From Enterobacteria phage KhF2: 64,000 nucleotides of DNA. The notes beneath the pieces were generated by a model. It saw nothing but the letters and a program-made list of their open reading frames with translations. It made no database searches and was not told the DNA's origin. Below, in pieces: positions 4,064-33,662 of this stretch. The stretch lies in sequence record KT184314.1; one strand, 5' to 3'. Position 1 is the stretch's first letter. Every line of letters begins with the position of its first letter. The position numbers and the translations under genes were made by a program.

Positions 4064-4270
4064 GCCTTTTCTTTACCGGAGAAATAGATTGTTTAAGTTT
4101 TGCTGTAAACGGTCTTCTGTAAATTTGTTGAGCCAGACCAAGTTTTAAATTTTTTCAAAATTAAATTGGCTTGAAATTTTCATACGTTCTTGATGTATTT
4201 GGTCTTCTGCTCCTTTAAAGAATACTCGTAAGAACTCTTTAAGGGAGGGGCTAAATAGCCCTCTCAAAAT

Positions 4271-9475: not shown

Positions 9476-9939
9476 TGCAACTCTCAAGAAAAGGTTTAGA
9501 AGCTATTAAGTTCTTCGAAGGTCTTGAGTTAGAGGCTTACGAAGACTCTGCCGGAATCCCAACAATCGGGTATGGTACAATTCGTATTGACGGAAAACCT
9601 GTTAAGATGGGAATGAAAATCACCGCTGAACAAGCTGAACAGTATCTTCTCGCGGATGTTGAGAAGTTTGTTGCAGCAGTGAACAAAGCTATCAAGGTTC
9701 CAACTACTCAGAATGAGTTCGATGCACTTGTAAGTGAAACATACAACATCGGTATCACAGCTATGCAGGATTCCACATTTATCAAGCGCCACAATGCTGG
9801 TAATAAGGTAGGTTGTGCAGAAGCTATGCAGTGGTGGAACAAGGTTACAGTCAAAGGTAAGAAGGTCACTTCAAACGGTCTTAAAAACAGACGTAGGATG
9901 GAAGCTGACATTTATCTTGACAGTGTATACCCAAAGTAA
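9475..9939 (+). CDS. GH24 lysozyme (T4 e-type endolysin)
   Basis: E-x8-D-x5-T catalytic triad pattern (EGLELEAYEDSAGIPTIGYG) matching T4 lysozyme; followed by terminator. Confidence 0.8.
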   Translation: MQLSRKGLEAIKFFEGLELEAYEDSAGIPTIGYGTIRIDGKPVKMGMKITAEQAEQYLLADVEKFVAAVNKAIKVPTTQNEFDALVSETYNIGITAMQDSTFIKRHNAGNKVGCAEAMQWWNKVTVKGKKVTSNGLKNRRRMEADIYLDSVYPK

Positions 9940-9951
9940 TATCTTCATAGG

Positions 9952-9978
9952 CTCCTTCGGGAGCCTTTTTTATTTTCT
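9952..9978 (+). terminator. rho-independent terminator
   Basis: GGCTCC-ttcg-GGAGCC followed by TTTTTTATTTT. Confidence 0.7.
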
Positions 9979-16195: not shown

Positions 16196-16234
16196 TGTTC
16201 AGGTATCTGGGGCTATTTAGCCCCGTTGCGTCGA

Positions 16235-26386: not shown

Positions 26387-27078
26387 TGTTTAACTAACAT
26401 GGTTTTAATGTGTGGAAGGATTCTGTTTACCTTCTGAACATTCTTCTCTGTATCTTCTATAAAGCATACTATATTAAAGTAAGGAAGAATGCAAGACTGA
26501 ATCATCCTCACTTTCAAACTTTCTGCACTTATAGAGTTAGTTCCAAAACCACGCATAAAAAGCAAGTAATCATGCTCTATATTGTGCCTTAAAAACATCT
26601 CAGTAGGTATTCTCTGAGATTCACCTCTTGCTGTCAAGAGTCCAACTGCTGCATGATTTGCAATTGCATCAATAATGTTGAAAACATATGTTGGTTTTGC
26701 TCTTACAGAATCAAGAAGATTAGTGTACTGTGAGAATGACCCATCAGTCAATTCCGTTGAGCAATCTTCGTGATTAAAATTTGTAAGAACACCATCAATA
26801 TCTGCTAAGATGAGGTTACCTTTTTCTACAAGGTCTTTATTGACTATCACTAAGCTATCACGCCTTACACCTATAGTTTGTCCAGTCTCTTTGTCCACAA
26901 CGTTCACAATGGGTTCTGATGTGTGGAACTCTTCAAGTGAACATACAACCTCTCTTGCAGTATCTTCAAAATCCCTGCACTGTTCTGGAGTCCATACACA
27001 GGAATCAAGACCTAACTCATGAGGGTGCAAGTCGTAAGCATGGCACAGTACTTCATCAGACTTTCTTAATTTTTTCAT
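26383..27078 (-). CDS. HAD-superfamily phosphatase-like protein (possible nucleotidase)
   Basis: Motif ILADIDGVLTNF resembles HAD motif I (DxDG[TV]); assignment by motif only. Confidence 0.45.
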   Translation of the reverse strand: MKKLRKSDEVLCHAYDLHPHELGLDSCVWTPEQCRDFEDTAREVVCSLEEFHTSEPIVNVVDKETGQTIGVRRDSLVIVNKDLVEKGNLILADIDGVLTNFNHEDCSTELTDGSFSQYTNLLDSVRAKPTYVFNIIDAIANHAAVGLLTARGESQRIPTEMFLRHNIEHDYLLFMRGFGTNSISAESLKVRMIQSCILPYFNIVCFIEDTEKNVQKVNRILPHIKTMLVKH

Positions 27079-27604
27079 GGTTTACCTTAGAAATGTTTGT
27101 TGCAAATTCACATTGAGCAATAACTTTCATGTTGTTATAGACATCTTGAGAATATTTCTTAGCTTTAGGGATTCTGTACGAATACCCAGCATTATATGAT
27201 GCTAAAACTTTTTGTAAAGTCTTCTTTGACTTTGGCTGACCATGCACCTTTGTCCAAAACTCAAGCTCTTTGTGAGTTTCCTTCGCAGCATAGTCAAAGT
27301 CTTTTAAGAGTTTCTTTTTAGCCACATTAGGACTAATTTTGTTACGCTTTACAACAGTCTTCAAGTGATTCTGGAAAATACCATAATCATGTGTCTTTTT
27401 ATTCTCTACCTTCAGACCTAACTCTGACTCTTGTAAGGCTATAGCAGCTAGAGTGATACCCCAACCTTTACCCATGTTATTCTCACCATACTGGTAAGCT
27501 TTTAACATGTTTACTTTTTGGCTAATTGATAGCTCTGGGCAGTCAACTGCATAAGATAAGTGTGCTGTAAACATTAAGCACAAACCTAGAATCAATTTCT
27601 TCAT
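27056..27604 (-). CDS. secreted lytic-transglycosylase-like protein
   Basis: Signal peptide MKKLILGLCLMFTAHLSYA; motif AAIALQESELG resembles the SLT catalytic Glu-Ser region. Confidence 0.4.
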   Translation of the reverse strand: MKKLILGLCLMFTAHLSYAVDCPELSISQKVNMLKAYQYGENNMGKGWGITLAAIALQESELGLKVENKKTHDYGIFQNHLKTVVKRNKISPNVAKKKLLKDFDYAAKETHKELEFWTKVHGQPKSKKTLQKVLASYNAGYSYRIPKAKKYSQDVYNNMKVIAQCEFATNISKVNHEKIKKV

Positions 27605-27662: not shown

Positions 27663-27690
27663 AATAAAAAAGGCCGCCGAAGCAGCCTTT
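27663..27690 (-). terminator. rho-independent terminator
   Basis: Minus-strand GGCTGCTTCGGCGGCC followed by TTTTTTATTT. Confidence 0.6.
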
Positions 27691-27704
27691 TAAGAAATTA
27701 CTTA

Positions 27705-28814
27705 TTAGATTTCACGTTTACGCTGAGAGATAAGTTCACCAGCAGTGCCAACGATGACATGCAGAGCTTCAGTCTTGCCATCCCACGCTTTCAGTACCTT
27801 ACGTTGATTATCAACGATTGCTGCAACTTCATAACGAGACGAGCGCATCTTCATATCATTGTAATCAGTTGGAACAGATACAACATCTCGTGGATGGACA
27901 CGAACCTTCAGAATTGTATCGCCTGAGAAGCAACGAACATAATCCCAAGCACCAACGTGAAGACCTTGAGAGCAAGTCACGTTACGGTTATTATCAACCA
28001 TCCAACGTGGCATTTCTACAACGTTACCCAAATCATTAGGTACTTTGTAGGTGTGGGAGTCAACCAGCTTGCCTTCACGAGTGGATACTTTCTTCCAACC
28101 AATGATGTAGCCTTCCTCATCAATTTCGACATCAAGGTGAGATACGAAGCCCCAAAGTTGTTCTACAGAGTCTTTAGATGGGTTTTCCATCAGTTTTTCG
28201 AAGAACATCACAAGGCGTTCAAAGCCTTTGTCTCCAGTCTTCATCATGTGAAGAATACGGTCAACCAGAGTAGAACGCATCTCAACAGCACCGTAGAATA
28301 GCTTGTCGCCTTTGATTGTGATAGCACCCTGAGTGAAGTTTTCGATAGACTTACGAATGTTCATCAGTTCAAATGCTTTCTTGAACTCACCTTTCACAAC
28401 ATGAACTACAATCTCTTGATAGTTCGGATGAGTAGACTCAACAATTTCAGATTCTGAACCATAAGTCATAATTACAGAATCACCAGTAATCATGTACTCA
28501 ATCTTGTCATCTTTCTGCATAGCTTCGTGCAGTTTATTTACTGGAGCTTTCTGTACAGCGTCTTTAACTACCTTTTCAACTGGTTTTCCATCTTTCTTCT
28601 TAAAGGTCTTAGCAACTTGTTTCAAAGTCTTCGTAGCTGGTGTAGAAGTTGCCTTCTTATTCCCTTTTAAGGTTGCTTCATGACGCTCTACAGCACGACC
28701 GACTGAACGGGTTGAAGTATTAAATTTCTGTGCAATAGCTGTTTTAGTCAGCTTACCTTCTTTAACCAGTTTGTAAATTTCTGCGTCAATCTGTGCTTTA
28801 GTTTTAGTAGTCAT
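27705..28814 (-). CDS. rIIB: rIIB-like protein
   Basis: Directly downstream of the rIIA-like gene, similar size class; assignment by synteny, not motif. Confidence 0.4.
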   Translation of the reverse strand: MTTKTKAQIDAEIYKLVKEGKLTKTAIAQKFNTSTRSVGRAVERHEATLKGNKKATSTPATKTLKQVAKTFKKKDGKPVEKVVKDAVQKAPVNKLHEAMQKDDKIEYMITGDSVIMTYGSESEIVESTHPNYQEIVVHVVKGEFKKAFELMNIRKSIENFTQGAITIKGDKLFYGAVEMRSTLVDRILHMMKTGDKGFERLVMFFEKLMENPSKDSVEQLWGFVSHLDVEIDEEGYIIGWKKVSTREGKLVDSHTYKVPNDLGNVVEMPRWMVDNNRNVTCSQGLHVGAWDYVRCFSGDTILKVRVHPRDVVSVPTDYNDMKMRSSRYEVAAIVDNQRKVLKAWDGKTEALHVIVGTAGELISQRKREI

Positions 28815-28857
28815 CTTATTACTCTCTCTTGTTAGTTAATAAATCATTTTGTGATGC

Positions 28858-28893
28858 TATTTTAAGGGGCTTTGAAGCCCCTTGTCAAACACT
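28858..28893 (-). promoter_or_regulatory. sigma70-like promoter with a hairpin in the spacer
   Basis: Minus-strand TTGACA - AGGGGCTTCAAAGCCCC (17 nt) - TTAAAAT upstream of the rIIB-like start. Confidence 0.45.
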
Positions 28894-31260
28894 TTAATCG
28901 TAAATTGTAGTCCCTTCTGGAACACATTTTACATCAAAACCTAAGAACTTACTCACTTCGATGGGTGACACTTTATTCCAATCTAAATGAGAAAGCAAGA
29001 AGTTTTCTTGTTTTCTTTTTGAAAGATAGTTTGTCACCTTAATAACCATACGGTCACCAGCTTTCTTAATTTTCTTGTAAAGCTTTGTATCGTTGTCAAG
29101 GCAGTCTTTCAAAGTTTTCAATACACTAATGGTATAAGTGTATGCAAATGGTGCAGCAACGTATTGGATTTTACCGAACATTGCCTCTACAGCCTCTTCA
29201 TTTCCTTCTAGGAAGATAGTTTTGTTTGTATCCCTTGAATAACAATACCCGCGAGAAATCTTCCTGTTATTAAACGTAAAGTTTCTGGCAATAATCCAAC
29301 TGCTTGTAAGGTCAAGGACACCATTCATATAGATACGCGTCATATATCTGTTATGGTTAATCCAGTGAACATCAGTTAAGCTGTCGTTCAAGAGTTTCTC
29401 ATCTACTTCAATCCAATCTTCTGGTATCTTTTTCCAATTTGCTTTTCGGAAAACATAGACTGTCTTACCTGTAACATTAGCAACTGACTTAGCTACATCT
29501 TCTGGAGATGAGCAAAAACATTCACCATCAACTGTGTCACCGATTGCCTTAATGTAAAGCTGAGGTTCTTCAATTGTGTCTAAGTCCTCTGACACCTCTT
29601 TGTAGGAGGCTACACCTTCTGCTGGAACAGCTTTCCAGAGTTTTACAACACCTCTTACAGCTTCTTTACGTTGGTAATGGTGTTCCTTATCAGACATTTT
29701 CACAATCTTTAACAAGCTTTTATCAAGTTTGTGCAGATTGATTAAGTCATCTAACTCTTTTTCAGTCGAGAATACAAAGACAATACCATTGTATCTGTGA
29801 AACAGACTTGACTCACTGGCATAGTCTCGACATGCACCACGCAAGATTTGGTTGCGTCCTACAGTCTTCTCAGTACCATTTTTATTGCGACGGTCATTTA
29901 TAACAAACAAAAACTGTTCAATTTGGCTTTTACGCATTGCGCCAAAGATATTGAACATACTTGCCTCTTGAGTGTAGGAAAGTGCTGTTGCACGAATCTT
30001 ACTCTCTAAAGAGTTGAACTTGACATAAGCAACTGGGTCATAAAGATAATCTACTTTAGGGATGTTGTTTCCGTTCCTATCAACCTTAATATTACCTTTA
30101 CCGTCACGTTCATAAATGACTGAGCCGTCTTCTGCGTAGATAATTCCACGACGAATGTTTAGTAATTCTTCTTCCAGAGAATCAAGCTTAACGCCTCCCC
30201 ACTCTAACTTTGGACACACAGCATTAAACATCTCTCGTGAGTTCAAACGTAACTCAGCATAAGCCTGTGCAGCATCCATGAGTGTAGGTTGACTGTTAAC
30301 TTTCTTGATAACATCCTTTGTAATTGCTTCAGTTATCTTTTTAGTAGCCTCAATGATAACATTTTTTGTCGTGTCATTCATCTGCAATGCTTCACGAGAA
30401 GCTGCAATAGCGACTGAACCAATAGGCATGTAGATGTTTACAAGGTCTACGCTCCTACGGAAAAATTCTGGCAATACTTTGAAGAAATCATCACCAAGTA
30501 ATGCTTCCATGTTAACAGGGTAGGCAATGTTACCCATCACCACATTAAACTCTGTCCTGTTATCACTAGAACGCCAGCTGTGCTTATGAATCATGGCATC
30601 ATAAACACCTTCTTCACGGGCAATGACGTTCATATCTGCTAATACATCGTCGTACTCAATATTACTTTCTGGTTTTACAGTGAAGTATGAGTACACATTC
30701 CCAGCTTCTTCAAAGAACTTTGAGATACGGTGGTCAGCAACCGCCACACGTACAGCTAAACCATTAGGTTCTTTTGTTGGGTTAGTTGTCAGCTTAGTTA
30801 CTTGAGGGATACCATTCTCAAGATAAACAGAGTACTTATTAACAACACCATCAACATAGCTAGATACTGTGAATGACTGAGCAATTGCAAATGGTGACTT
30901 TGAGCCGATACCCATTGCACCAATGTAGTCATTAGAGTCATTCTTCGTAGAAGCTCCATAGTTTAGGTACAAACTCATAACTTTATCATGAGTCAATCCA
31001 GTTCCAAAATCACGAACTTCGAAGTAAGGCTCAAAACGAGTAGGTAAATGCACATGGAACGGGATGTTCTCTTTTCCAGCCTCTTTCTGAGCATCTACTG
31101 CGTTACATGACAGTTCACGAATCACTGCCCTTTCTTTAAAGGTATATACACCAGAACTCAAAAGGCTGAACATCTCAGGTGTCATTGTAATCTGTGCTTG
31201 AGACGTCTCTAAAGAAGTTGAACTCTTAATCACTTCTGCGTGGTCGTTTACCATGCGCAT
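28894..31260 (-). CDS. rIIA: rIIA-like protein with N-terminal GHKL (Bergerat-fold) ATPase motifs
   Basis: Motifs VIRELSCNAVDA, RDFGTGL and GAMGIGSKSPF correspond to the N, G1 and G2 boxes of GHKL ATPases as found in T4 rIIA; 788 aa. Confidence 0.6.
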   Translation of the reverse strand: MRMVNDHAEVIKSSTSLETSQAQITMTPEMFSLLSSGVYTFKERAVIRELSCNAVDAQKEAGKENIPFHVHLPTRFEPYFEVRDFGTGLTHDKVMSLYLNYGASTKNDSNDYIGAMGIGSKSPFAIAQSFTVSSYVDGVVNKYSVYLENGIPQVTKLTTNPTKEPNGLAVRVAVADHRISKFFEEAGNVYSYFTVKPESNIEYDDVLADMNVIAREEGVYDAMIHKHSWRSSDNRTEFNVVMGNIAYPVNMEALLGDDFFKVLPEFFRRSVDLVNIYMPIGSVAIAASREALQMNDTTKNVIIEATKKITEAITKDVIKKVNSQPTLMDAAQAYAELRLNSREMFNAVCPKLEWGGVKLDSLEEELLNIRRGIIYAEDGSVIYERDGKGNIKVDRNGNNIPKVDYLYDPVAYVKFNSLESKIRATALSYTQEASMFNIFGAMRKSQIEQFLFVINDRRNKNGTEKTVGRNQILRGACRDYASESSLFHRYNGIVFVFSTEKELDDLINLHKLDKSLLKIVKMSDKEHHYQRKEAVRGVVKLWKAVPAEGVASYKEVSEDLDTIEEPQLYIKAIGDTVDGECFCSSPEDVAKSVANVTGKTVYVFRKANWKKIPEDWIEVDEKLLNDSLTDVHWINHNRYMTRIYMNGVLDLTSSWIIARNFTFNNRKISRGYCYSRDTNKTIFLEGNEEAVEAMFGKIQYVAAPFAYTYTISVLKTLKDCLDNDTKLYKKIKKAGDRMVIKVTNYLSKRKQENFLLSHLDWNKVSPIEVSKFLGFDVKCVPEGTTIYD

Positions 31261-31288: not shown

Positions 31289-31465
31289 TTACTTGTTAAA
31301 CATTTTACCAGAACCACCACACATAGGGCAACAACCTGCTCTTGTATAACCTTCCCCATTACAGTAGTCACATTTTTTGTGCTCTGCATAGTACTTACAA
31401 AGAAGGTAAACAAACACTGCTACGCCACCAAGTGACAGTAAAATTTCTATCCAATATGCTTGCAT
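31289..31465 (-). CDS. small membrane-anchored protein with DnaJ-type zinc finger (58 aa, below the ORF-track cutoff)
   Basis: Hand translation MQAYWIEILLSLGGVAVFVYLLCKYY...CDYCNGEGY...CPMCGGSG; two CxxCxGxG motifs. Confidence 0.4.
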   Translation of the reverse strand: MQAYWIEILLSLGGVAVFVYLLCKYYAEHKKCDYCNGEGYTRAGCCPMCGGSGKMFNK

Positions 31466-31782
31466 GACTCACCTCTCATATTCTTGTAAAGGATAAAGCT
31501 TCTGTCATGGACGATACTTGTAGATACTGCAAAGTTACTTTCAAGCATCTGTTTATTTGGATTGTAGAAGCTTTCTTTAAACTCGTCAAGTGCAAATTGG
31601 TGATTGTCTGGAAGACCTTTTACACAGACCTTTATTGTGATTGCTGCTGCAATCTTACCAGTCAGTTCTTCTTTAGCTGCTACTAAAATTTTGTTAAGGA
31701 ACTTATGACCATTTTCAGGTTTCTTGATGTTCTCCCAACGTTCCTCTAAGACGATGTTGATGTTCATCTCTTTGATTTTCAT
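31447..31782 (-). CDS. hypothetical protein
   Basis: ORF track. Confidence 0.45.
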   Translation of the reverse strand: MKIKEMNINIVLEERWENIKKPENGHKFLNKILVAAKEELTGKIAAAITIKVCVKGLPDNHQFALDEFKESFYNPNKQMLESNFAVSTSIVHDRSFILYKNMRGESCKHIG

Positions 31783-31802
31783 AATCTTCTCCAGAAATTA
31801 AA

Positions 31803-31828
31803 AAGGCTCCCGTAGGAGCCTCTTATCA
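31803..31828 (-). terminator. rho-independent terminator
   Basis: Minus-strand GGCTCCTACGGGAGCC followed by TTTTTAATTT. Confidence 0.6.
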
Positions 31829-31835
31829 TATACTT

Positions 31836-33617
31836 TTAAAGCTGCTTGTCAATATTATTTCGAATATCACCAAGAGTTGTGTATCCGAACTGCTCAGAGT
31901 CACTAAAGACTAGACGTAAAGCACAAGCTGGATGTTCAAGTGCATCTGCAAAGCTCTGGAACCCATAGCCATCTACAGCTTTCAGATTTTCACCATCCCA
32001 CATAGGTGCTACACCACCAAAAGCAGACTTCTTAACACCACTATCTGTTTTAGGGTCTTTTGCAAGCATAATCTCTTTACCACCAATGCTTGCAAGGGTT
32101 GCTTTGACAGCAAATGCAAAGGTGTCACGAGTCATGTACTGGTAAGTGTAAGAACCTACACCAAACACTACGTTAGAGCTTGCAAAACCCATTTCATACA
32201 AACGCTTCAGTATTTCATTTGCACGTTCCAACGTGATAGAGTCGCCATAAATAAGTCCAATATGCTCATCCAGTACCTTAAAACCTTTAGAGTTAATAGT
32301 TCCTCCAAAGATGTTATACAGTGTCTTGATAGCTCCATCAATCTCAGCTACAGGACGTGTTACAACGTTTGCAGAACCAACCATATAAGCATTTTTCAAC
32401 ATCACTGTATCAGCAACTTCAAAGTCTTCTCTGTCAACAACCATCTCGTAGCCTTCTGACAGTAGCCATCCAGCAATACCATAGTTGATGTTCTCAAGCT
32501 TCATGTTCAGAACAGCATTCAACATTGTGTCACTGGCTTCCAGCTTGCTTAGGTGCTCGTAATAAGCCTTCTTAGCACATTCTAAGTGGATTGCTTTATA
32601 ACCTGTGACAATATGTACAGGGTCTCCAGAGTCAGGGCGAATTACCAGTTTGCCATCACGTCCCATAATTTCTTTACGAAGTGCTGGTAAGATTTCTGAC
32701 ACAGTTCTCCAGAAGTTATAAGTATCTGAAACAATGCTTGCAATACCTGTTGGGTAAGTTTCTGTTAAGAAACGACGGAAGGTTTGTAACTCACCTTTAA
32801 AGCGTCTTTCTTCTTCAATCAACTCATTACCACCTTCCCAAGCAATGTTTGCACACATTACAGAGTGCTCAGTGGCTGGTACAGAACTACCAATATCAGA
32901 GATTGGGTAGGACTGTCCATAGATTCGTTTAGCCGTGTATACAGCAGGGAAGCTATCAGTCCCTTTAAAGCTGGTTAAGTGACCTACAGCGTTAAATGCG
33001 TCATCAGTAAAGCCGGACATACCACGCATAGCAAAATCATGGCACTGATAAGGTAAATGTAAGTCATTGTCACAAGTAAGGTCAGCCCACTTCTTACAGA
33101 TGCGTTTGTAATGCAATGCAATAGTTGCAATGGTGCAAGCCTTCCAAATTTCAGCAGAGAAAGCATCTTCCAGATAACCTGCTACCCAATGAAAACCTGA
33201 AACAGTGTTCTGAAAGACAATCATCGGGACACGCATTGGAACAACTGTGCCTTCTTCTACAGCGTATACTTCAACTGGTAGATAACCTAAGTCGTGAAGT
33301 GCTTCCCAATGCTCTCGACCGATAGCATCTTTACCCAGAACACCATTCATGACTTCTAAGATTTCATCAATGGCTTCTTTTTTATCACGTTCAAAGAAAG
33401 TGGCATTCCAGTGGTCTATCAAGTAATCTTTAACAAAACGTTGAATACCAAAAGCCACTACACCGTCAATTGCTAAGGGGCTGTTAAACCATTTGTCGCT
33501 ACGTGGTGTCAGATTGAACATCAAGTACTCTGTTGCGCTAGGATACTGGTAAACATGACCAGATTTGTAAGCATCTGCATTTAAACCTGCTGGTACTGCA
33601 TAAAGTGATTTAGTCAT
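31836..33617 (-). CDS. nicotinamide phosphoribosyltransferase (NAMPT/NadV)-like protein
   Basis: 593 aa; recalled similarity to the NadV/NAMPT family (not motif-verified); paired with a PRPP-synthetase-like gene. Confidence 0.6.
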   Translation of the reverse strand: MTKSLYAVPAGLNADAYKSGHVYQYPSATEYLMFNLTPRSDKWFNSPLAIDGVVAFGIQRFVKDYLIDHWNATFFERDKKEAIDEILEVMNGVLGKDAIGREHWEALHDLGYLPVEVYAVEEGTVVPMRVPMIVFQNTVSGFHWVAGYLEDAFSAEIWKACTIATIALHYKRICKKWADLTCDNDLHLPYQCHDFAMRGMSGFTDDAFNAVGHLTSFKGTDSFPAVYTAKRIYGQSYPISDIGSSVPATEHSVMCANIAWEGGNELIEEERRFKGELQTFRRFLTETYPTGIASIVSDTYNFWRTVSEILPALRKEIMGRDGKLVIRPDSGDPVHIVTGYKAIHLECAKKAYYEHLSKLEASDTMLNAVLNMKLENINYGIAGWLLSEGYEMVVDREDFEVADTVMLKNAYMVGSANVVTRPVAEIDGAIKTLYNIFGGTINSKGFKVLDEHIGLIYGDSITLERANEILKRLYEMGFASSNVVFGVGSYTYQYMTRDTFAFAVKATLASIGGKEIMLAKDPKTDSGVKKSAFGGVAPMWDGENLKAVDGYGFQSFADALEHPACALRLVFSDSEQFGYTTLGDIRNNIDKQL

Positions 33618-33662
33618 CTTTTAATCTCTCTCAAAATGGGGCTTGGAAGCCCCTATAAAGTT

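Follow-up and report, generated by a model that had tools for sequence, protein, structure and literature searches.

The rIIA-rIIB pair of Enterobacteria phage KhF2 and the promoter-like hairpin element between its genes

The rII locus has long been known and is poorly understood, as the papers on BASEL and on CRISPRi-ART both state (CRISPRi-ART PMC11879866). In the Felixounavirus Bas63 (JohannRWettstein, MZ501086), deletion of either g84 or g85 causes a 10^4-10^5-fold drop in plating on a host carrying qatABCD, and complementation restores plating (PhageMaP, PMC11482910). In phiSUSP1 (hereafter SUSP1; Suspvirus, Ounavirinae), knocking down either rIIA or rIIB by CRISPRi-ART lowers plating on E. 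coli with lambda RexAB and not on Rex-free cells, and the same RexAB-specific requirement is seen in T4, MM02, EdH4 and N4 (PMC11879866); the T4 RexAB result is reproduced by HIDEN-SEQ. The RIIB protein of T6 is sufficient to trigger a CARD-gasdermin defence, which loss-of-function rIIB mutants escape, and expression of RIIB alone is toxic to E. coli (PMC10312443). In close orthologues, rIIA and rIIB are jointly required against abortive infection of the Rex and Qat types, and can be dispensed with on hosts that lack these systems. Here we describe the corresponding gene pair in a stretch of 64,000 nucleotides from Enterobacteria phage KhF2 (KT184314.1), which as a whole is called the window. 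We put at about 85% the probability that the genes at 28894-31260 and 27705-28814, both on the minus strand, form the rIIA-rIIB operon of a Felixounavirus with a role in counter-defence.

Assignment of the gene pair to the rII family

A sequence-only reading of the window had proposed that an rIIA/rIIB-like pair of 788 and 369 amino acids (aa) lies here in tandem, and the open reading frame (ORF) list bears this out to the nucleotide. The rIIA gene (28894-31260, minus strand, TAA stop included) encodes a protein of 788 aa and 89.5 kDa, and stands directly upstream of rIIB (27705-28814, minus strand, TAA stop included), which encodes 369 aa (41.8 kDa, isoelectric point 9.3); the gap between them is 79 nt. 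The profile search that the same reading had recommended matched the two proteins to PHROG 612 ‘RIIA’ (E-value 3.9e-189, with residues 1-770 placed on profile positions 1-716 of 725) and PHROG 609 ‘RIIB’ (E 5e-89), respectively. T4 rIIA and rIIB (NC_000866) match these same two profiles, with E-values of 9e-250 and 6.6e-111. Aligned directly by BLASTP, the window and T4 rIIA proteins are 32% identical over residues 24-317 (E 5e-37), and the rIIB proteins are 38% identical across residues 11-339 (E 5e-61). No pairwise BLASTP alignment of rIIA extends past residue 317, although the PHROG 612 profile spans the whole protein, and the C-terminus of rIIA has been termed ‘highly variable’ (PMC7824862). 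The three GHKL ATPase boxes that had been claimed to run in T4 order, ELSCNAVDA, DFGTGL and GIGSKSPF, are present in the large protein, where they start at residues 49, 84 and 117, and BLASTP pairs them column for column with RELITNMIDA, DFGPGM and GLGSKSPF of T4 rIIA.

The likeness to T4 lies in the shared PHROGs, in the order rIIA-then-rIIB, in an N-terminal GHKL-transducer module of rIIA with all motifs aligned, and in nearly the whole length of rIIB, including its helix-turn-helix (HTH) domain. The differences are that the basic linker of the window rIIB is longer (369 aa in total versus 312 aa in T4), that the C-terminal half of rIIA cannot be aligned pairwise, and that rIIA.1, which stands upstream in T4, has no relation to the 58-aa ORF found upstream of rIIA here. 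In T4 the two genes are separated by about 11 nt, compared with the 79 nt that hold a promoter-like site and hairpin in the window. In the linear T4 record, rIIA stands at the start and rIIB at the end.

Much closer relatives place the window within Felixounavirus (Ounavirinae), as a Felix O1-like coliphage. A stretch of 3.9 kb is 99.5% identical at the nucleotide level to Enterobacteria phage KhF1 (KT184313) and 95-98% identical to some 90 further phages of the Felix O1 type from Escherichia, Salmonella and Shigella hosts, and at least 80% of it is present in at least 210 phage records. The rIIA proteins of the window and of KhF1 are 100% identical. In the KhF1 record both ORFs are already annotated, as ‘rIIA lysis inhibitor’ and ‘rIIB lysis inhibitor’, with a Rho-independent terminator after rIIB and with nadV and prs upstream of the pair. 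KhF1 and other Felixounavirus phages (gene 1 of Felix O1 is rIIA) carry the same genes and the same neighbours, namely nadV, prs, the 58-aa membrane ORF and polynucleotide kinase, with no difference of substance. The rII pair of the window is thus already known and annotated, in hundreds of Felix O1-like genomes, and its orthologues are experimentally characterised. In Bas63, bas63_0084 and bas63_0085 share 97% and 82% identity with the window rIIA and rIIB, respectively, and stand in the same order, with most of the rIIB differences falling in the linker and at the extreme C-terminus. SUSP1, which belongs to another genus, shows homology over the full length of both proteins (63% for rIIA and 80% for rIIB).

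Two observations on published labels belong here. The PhageMaP preprint ascribes to g84 and g85 a ‘high sequence homology (>80%)’ with T4 RIIA/B (PMC11482910); contrary to this, the nearly identical window proteins show the 32% and 38% identity to T4 given above, the former over only the N-terminal 40% of rIIA. We also see that the ‘RIIB’ profile of PHROG 609, with 1055 positions, acts as a fused rIIA+rIIB model: positions ~20-310 are matched by rIIA N-termini (E 1.4e-46 for the window protein, 1.6e-58 for T4), and positions ~750-1050 by rIIB proteins. The profile could for that reason put the wrong label, ‘RIIB’, on a fragment of rIIA.

Domain architecture of rIIA and rIIB

Pfam and NCBIfam scans of the two window proteins gave nothing above the curated thresholds, the Pfam copy used being one without the PF26926 model; that label is attached, as a precomputed assignment, to nearly all listed rIIB homologues, including the 97%-identical cluster P0121. 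The GHKL and HTH assignments rest on family-wide scans, profiles and predicted structures. Conservation in rIIA was assessed from an alignment of 62-63 homologues, reaching down to 21% identity, and the T4 sequence was left out of the alignment used for structure prediction.

The AlphaFold2 model of rIIA is confident, with a mean predicted local distance difference test (pLDDT) score of 86.8. Its N-terminus is predicted to be a GHKL ATPase of the Hsp90/MutL/topoisomerase II type with the Bergerat fold, followed by a second, transducer-like domain. Together these occupy residues 25-325 (30286-31188, minus strand), the sole part of the protein that BLASTP can align to T4 rIIA. The three GHKL signatures follow one another in the expected order, as ExxxNxxD (E49/N53/D56), DxGxG (D84/G86/G88) and GxxGxG (G114/G117/G119), and are invariant or nearly so in 63 homologues. 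Motif I, the N box (ELSCNAVDA, 31090-31116, minus strand), contributes the invariant residues E49, N53 and D56; motif II, the G1 box (DFGTGL, 30994-31011, minus strand), contributes D84 and G86; and motif III, the G2 box (GIGSKSPF, 30889-30912, minus strand), contributes G117, G119 and K121, with G114 invariant just before it. A second invariant cluster is formed by G243, Y247, G281, R289 and E290, the last two of which lie in an invariant ASREAL motif of the second domain (30385-30402, minus strand). By analogy, R289 may be the counterpart of the Arg or Lys that contacts the gamma-phosphate in Hsp90, GyrB and MutL.

At the level of the family, Pfam HATPase_c_3 is matched at an E-value of 1e-3 or better by 20 of 62 rIIA homologues, and a profile made from the rIIA alignment matched the N-domains of TRAP1, HtpG and GRP94 in the PDB (E 1.2e-4). 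The NCBIfam ‘HSP90 family’ model gives an E-value of 2.9e-11 on the window protein, with a score of 42.5 bits that is far under its cutoff of 455. Taken together, sequence conservation and the model indicate that the first ~325 residues of rIIA are a GHL-class GHKL ATPase with its transducer, in which all nucleotide-binding and catalytic residues are intact and for which ATP binding and hydrolysis are predicted. Identity to described members of the GHL class (Hsp90/TRAP1/GRP94, MutL, topoisomerase II/VI B, MORC, SMCHD1 and sacsin) is only 12-17%. Unlike these, rIIA carries no Toprim, endonuclease, CW or Hsp90 C-terminal dimerisation domain, and its C-terminal half has no solved counterpart. 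That half (residues 326-788; 28894-30285, minus strand) is a confidently modelled, lineage-specific alpha/beta region with no detectable pairwise similarity to the C-terminus of T4 rIIA.

The rIIB model (mean pLDDT 85.3) falls into three parts. Residues 6-51 (28662-28799, minus strand) are predicted to form a three-helix HTH domain, which in structure comparison and family-wide scans resembles the sigma-region-4/LuxR type. This is followed by a basic linker (residues 54-89; 28548-28655, minus strand) that is predicted to be disordered, with pLDDT below 50, and in which 11 of the 36 residues are Lys or Arg and only 3 are Asp or Glu. The remainder, residues 90-369 (27708-28547, minus strand), is a conserved alpha/beta body for which profile and structure searches gave no strong solved counterpart. 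All of the family's invariant residues (F204, N211, G235, R270, V273, C281, G284, H286, P308 and V312) lie in this body. Cys281 and His286 stand at the two ends of the stretch CSQGLH (residues 281-286; 27957-27974, minus strand), and D310 and D317 are nearly invariant. Cys281 and His286 could, together with D310 and D317, form a metal site or a catalytic pair.

The intergenic element and the probable transcription unit

In T4-like phages, composite elements called PeSLs (promoter-early stem-loops) combine a sigma70 promoter with a GGGG...CCCC stem-loop, which in the commonest subclass sits between the -35 box and the -10 box; promoter activity and terminator/attenuator activity have both been demonstrated for PeSLs, in phage phi1 (Arbiol 2010 and Comeau 2014; PMC2839356, PMC4122927). 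The gap between rIIA and rIIB in the window has a closely similar layout, reading on the minus strand TAA-agtgt-TTGACA-AGGGGCTTCAAAGCCCCT-TAAAAT-...-GAGAGAG-...-ATG. The promoter-like site (TTGACA-18 nt-TAAAAT; 28859-28888, minus strand) begins 5 nt past the rIIA stop and agrees with the consensus at 11 of 12 positions. Its 18-nt spacer, AAGGGGCTtcaaAGCCCCTT, is a GC-rich palindrome, which folds into an 8-bp hairpin with a 4-nt loop, AAGGGGCT-tcaa-AGCCCCTT, filling the spacer (28864-28883, minus strand). The intergenic RNA has a predicted folding energy of -17.2 kcal/mol (z = -3.0), and no other promoter-like site in the 64 kb has a stem of at least 6 bp inside its spacer. Of the earlier proposal that a sigma70-like promoter with a hairpin in its spacer lies between the genes, the sequence element and the hairpin are confirmed, and the promoter stands as a consensus match only.

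KhF1 and Bas63 carry the identical hairpin and TTGACA, with a -10 box of TAGAAT in Bas63 where the window has TAAAAT. SUSP1 and Mordin (Mooglevirus) share the same layout, TTGACA-GGGGCT-gaaa-AGCCCCT-TAGAAT, with a GAAA loop and, in SUSP1, a spacer of 17 nt. In Zyzzx, whose rIIA is 33% identical, TTGACA is kept right after the stop codon, and a different hairpin lies over the -10 region. As judged from sequence comparison, the promoter-like hairpin element between rIIA and rIIB is conserved across three genera of Ounavirinae.

Stop codon, -35 box, GC-rich GGGG...CCCC stem-loop, -10 box, Shine-Dalgarno sequence and start codon thus follow one another as in the commonest PeSL subclass, and the activities of the element here are predicted from this arrangement. 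It differs from the described PeSLs in that it occurs in Ounavirinae and not in a T4-like phage, and lies between two conserved, core-like genes and not beside variable ORFans. Where PeSLs are described as many dispersed copies that mediate indels or shuffling, there are only three composite elements in the 64 kb; the copy described here is syntenic across genera, and no evidence of shuffling was seen, although no analysis was aimed at it. The other two elements have their hairpin just past the -10 box. One (TTGACA-16 nt-TATGAT followed by a hairpin and T run; 31801-31852, minus strand) lies between nadV and a 111-aa ORF, and the other (9917-9966, plus strand) has a hairpin and T run directly after its -10 box. 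A hairpin-in-spacer promoter as a frequent cassette of this genome was accordingly considered and rejected, as only the rIIA-rIIB copy is of that kind. The stem GGGGCT-N4-AGCCCC itself occurs 4 times in the window where ~0.03 are expected, the sites including 33638-33653, 16209-16224 and 4247-4262. Of these, at least the copy at 33638 lies in an intergenic gap, that of prs and nadV, with ATTTTG after it.

A promoter of the sigma70 type in the gap, second to the one upstream, would start transcripts ~7 nt past the -10 box, and these would lack the hairpin. Read-through RNA from rIIA alone would carry it, as an attenuator or as a 3' stabiliser of the rIIA message. As what comes after the hairpin, UUAAAAU, makes a poor U tract, it would be at most an attenuator or 3' stabiliser. 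An intrinsic terminator, with a 10-bp stem and T run, is found 13 nt past the rIIB stop (27668-27691, minus strand); it is annotated in KhF1 and has the same sequence as the Felix O1 terminator t2. The scan found no terminator-like site between the two small ORFs and rIIA. Judging from these signals, the transcription unit likely runs from the promoter at 31852 through the 111-aa ORF, the 58-aa ORF, rIIA and rIIB to the terminator at 27691-27668.

The two small ORFs precede rIIA in the same order in KhF1, Bas63 and SUSP1. The first (31447-31782, minus strand; 111 aa) belongs to PHROG 4262, with function unassigned. The second (31289-31465, minus strand; 58 aa, PHROG 3931, function likewise unassigned) stands upstream of rIIA at a distance of 28 nt. 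The encoded protein has a transmembrane helix at its N-terminus, with a mean Kyte-Doolittle hydropathy of 2.13 across 19 residues, after which come two CxxCxGxG motifs (CDYCNGEG...CPMCGGSG), the signature of a DnaJ-type zinc finger. The ORF holds the same position in KhF1, Bas63 (98% identical) and SUSP1 (46%), is confined to 257 records from Felixounavirus, Mooglevirus and Suspvirus, and does not occur upstream of rIIA in either T4 or Zyzzx. The idea that it encodes a general third rII component was rejected on account of this confinement to three genera, and of the unrelated genes that stand upstream in T4 (rIIA.1) and Zyzzx. As a lineage-specific add-on in those three genera, the 58-aa protein possibly tethers an rII complex to the membrane.

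Just upstream of the rII unit are nadV, encoding a 593-aa nicotinamide phosphoribosyltransferase (31836-33617, minus strand), and prs, encoding a ribose-phosphate pyrophosphokinase. Their counterparts in Bas63, g79 and g80, counter Sir2-HerA and other defence systems (PhageMaP, PMC11482910), and for this reason nadV/prs beside rIIA/rIIB looks like a small counter-defence cluster, in which NAD+ regeneration adjoins rII. On the other side, just downstream of the rIIB terminator, a 182-aa ORF (27056-27604, minus strand; PHROG 600, function unassigned) has a signal-peptide-like N-terminus (MKKLILGLCLMFTAHLSYA). Its relatives are labelled variously as ‘putative lysin’, as ‘similar to T4 RegB and contains lysozyme-like domain’, or as hypothetical. 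Near the start of the window, 8 of the 15 nucleotides at 94-108 are N, and were probably masked or ambiguous.

Competing readings of the locus and of rII action

Several points weigh against our reading of this locus. The counter-defence phenotypes were obtained in orthologues and not in KhF2 itself. Pfam HATPase_c on the window rIIA is below significance (E 0.12, 13.3 bits versus a cutoff of 26.4), and single-sequence PDB searches with rIIA and rIIB found no relatives, that is, no solved rII structure; a literature search from 2023 onward likewise found no structural or mechanistic rII paper. The internal promoter is a consensus match in a region where such matches are common, with 20 found in 5 kb versus 11 expected by chance. 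As to how the proteins act, the proposal set out below, that they work at DNA, is drawn from domain content, and PhageMaP (PMC11482910), like the classical view, favours membrane-level action.

Could the 788-aa protein be a different GHKL enzyme, such as an Hsp90-type chaperone, MutL or a topoisomerase subunit? One GenBank record does carry the name ‘molecular chaperone, HSP90 family’. We give this identity almost no credence, and regard it as refuted by the full-length match to the PHROG that contains T4 rIIA, by the direct alignment to T4 rIIA, by the rIIB gene immediately downstream, and by the lack of family-specific downstream domains, as neither Hsp90 middle/C-terminal nor MutL endonuclease nor Toprim domains were detected in domain scans and structure comparison. 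A fold like that of Hsp90, MutL and topoisomerase II is the known nature of the rIIA N-terminus (PMC7824862), so that the sequence-only reading, which was to fall if the ATPase went to another GHKL family without any rII relationship, holds. A further reading is that the intergenic ‘promoter’ is a chance consensus match, in which case the conserved element would be just an RNA hairpin (an attenuator or 3' stabiliser) and rIIB would be expressed solely by read-through. The abundance of promoter-like matches is in keeping with this, as are the stability and conservation of the hairpin, and the Felix O1 paper lists no promoter at the rIIA-rIIB gap. Yet a perfect TTGACA lies directly past the rIIA stop in KhF1, Bas63, SUSP1, Mordin and even Zyzzx, where the hairpin has moved, and the layout is that of the PeSL subclass seen most often, whose promoter and terminator activities were both demonstrated in phage phi1 (PMC2839356). 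We consider a chance match possible but doubtful, and favour a composite element that would serve both as promoter and as RNA hairpin.

With regard to mechanism, we tentatively propose an action of rII at DNA rather than at the membrane, while considering its molecular steps rather unlikely to be right as they stand. We infer that rIIA and rIIB would act as one complex, in which ATP binding and hydrolysis would make rIIA dimerise or clamp, as they do in other GHL ATPases, and in which rIIB would tether the complex to DNA, or to a nucleoprotein or replication-recombination intermediate, through its HTH and lysine-rich linker; rIIA would then be a dimerising clamp of the Hsp90/MutL kind on that target. 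The complex would hide or remove the infection signal read by abortive-infection sensors (RexA, QatABCD), rather than plug the effector, and membrane depolarisation or DNA degradation downstream would then never begin. Membrane association would be peripheral and secondary.

The opposite view has rIIA and rIIB working at the inner membrane, where they would directly preserve its integrity or potential, for instance through a block of the RexB or QatB effector. The annotations ‘membrane integrity protector’ and ‘lysis inhibitor’ are meant in this way, and the lineage of the window has a gene for a small membrane protein just upstream. The T4 rII proteins have historically been recovered in membrane fractions. 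It is on that older T4 biochemistry, and not on the window sequence, that membrane association rests, because neither protein has a plausible transmembrane helix or a strongly hydrophobic segment (averaged over 19 residues, Kyte-Doolittle hydropathy peaks at 1.29 in rIIA and at 0.69 in rIIB), and rIIA reads as a soluble protein. Membrane action fits the depolarisation through which RexAB kills (PMC11879866), as well as the QatB-depolarisation model that PhageMaP proposed for Bas63, although its main text names only g84 and g85 as Qat counters (PMC11482910). Neither the lack of hydrophobic segments nor the domain content favours membrane action, as the ATPase module of rIIA is of a class that works on DNA or client proteins and rIIB begins with an HTH of the DNA-binding type; the upstream membrane ORF, moreover, is missing from T4 and Zyzzx. 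We regard membrane-level action as unlikely, though it is the main rival. A third view, that rIIB is mainly a transcription factor modulating phage or host transcription, with the defence phenotypes arising indirectly, seems to us improbable. Its sigma-region-4/LuxR-like HTH and the toxicity of RIIB expressed by itself (PMC10312443) are compatible with such a role, and Iyer et al. 2021 (PMC7824862) had already put rIIB forward as a DNA-binding or transcription factor. However, none of the invariant rIIB residues are in the HTH, and the shared requirement for rIIA and rIIB, with the same phenotype, is better explained by a joint complex of the kind proposed above than by a stand-alone regulator.

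The discovery value of the locus is small, as the pair is annotated in hundreds of genomes and the QatABCD and RexAB phenotypes of close orthologues are published; nor is a DNA-level reading of rII specific to the KhF2 window, which gives no special handle on mechanism. What the analysis does provide is confirmation that an rIIA/rIIB call made from sequence alone was correct, and the finding that three genera of Ounavirinae conserve, in the gap between rIIA and rIIB, an element of the PeSL type, which has so far been described in T4-like phages. In addition, the consolidated domain picture, with a GHL-class ATPase in rIIA, an HTH, basic linker and Cys/His-bearing domain in rIIB, and no transmembrane segments in either, sharpens work on a mechanistic question that is now 70 years old.

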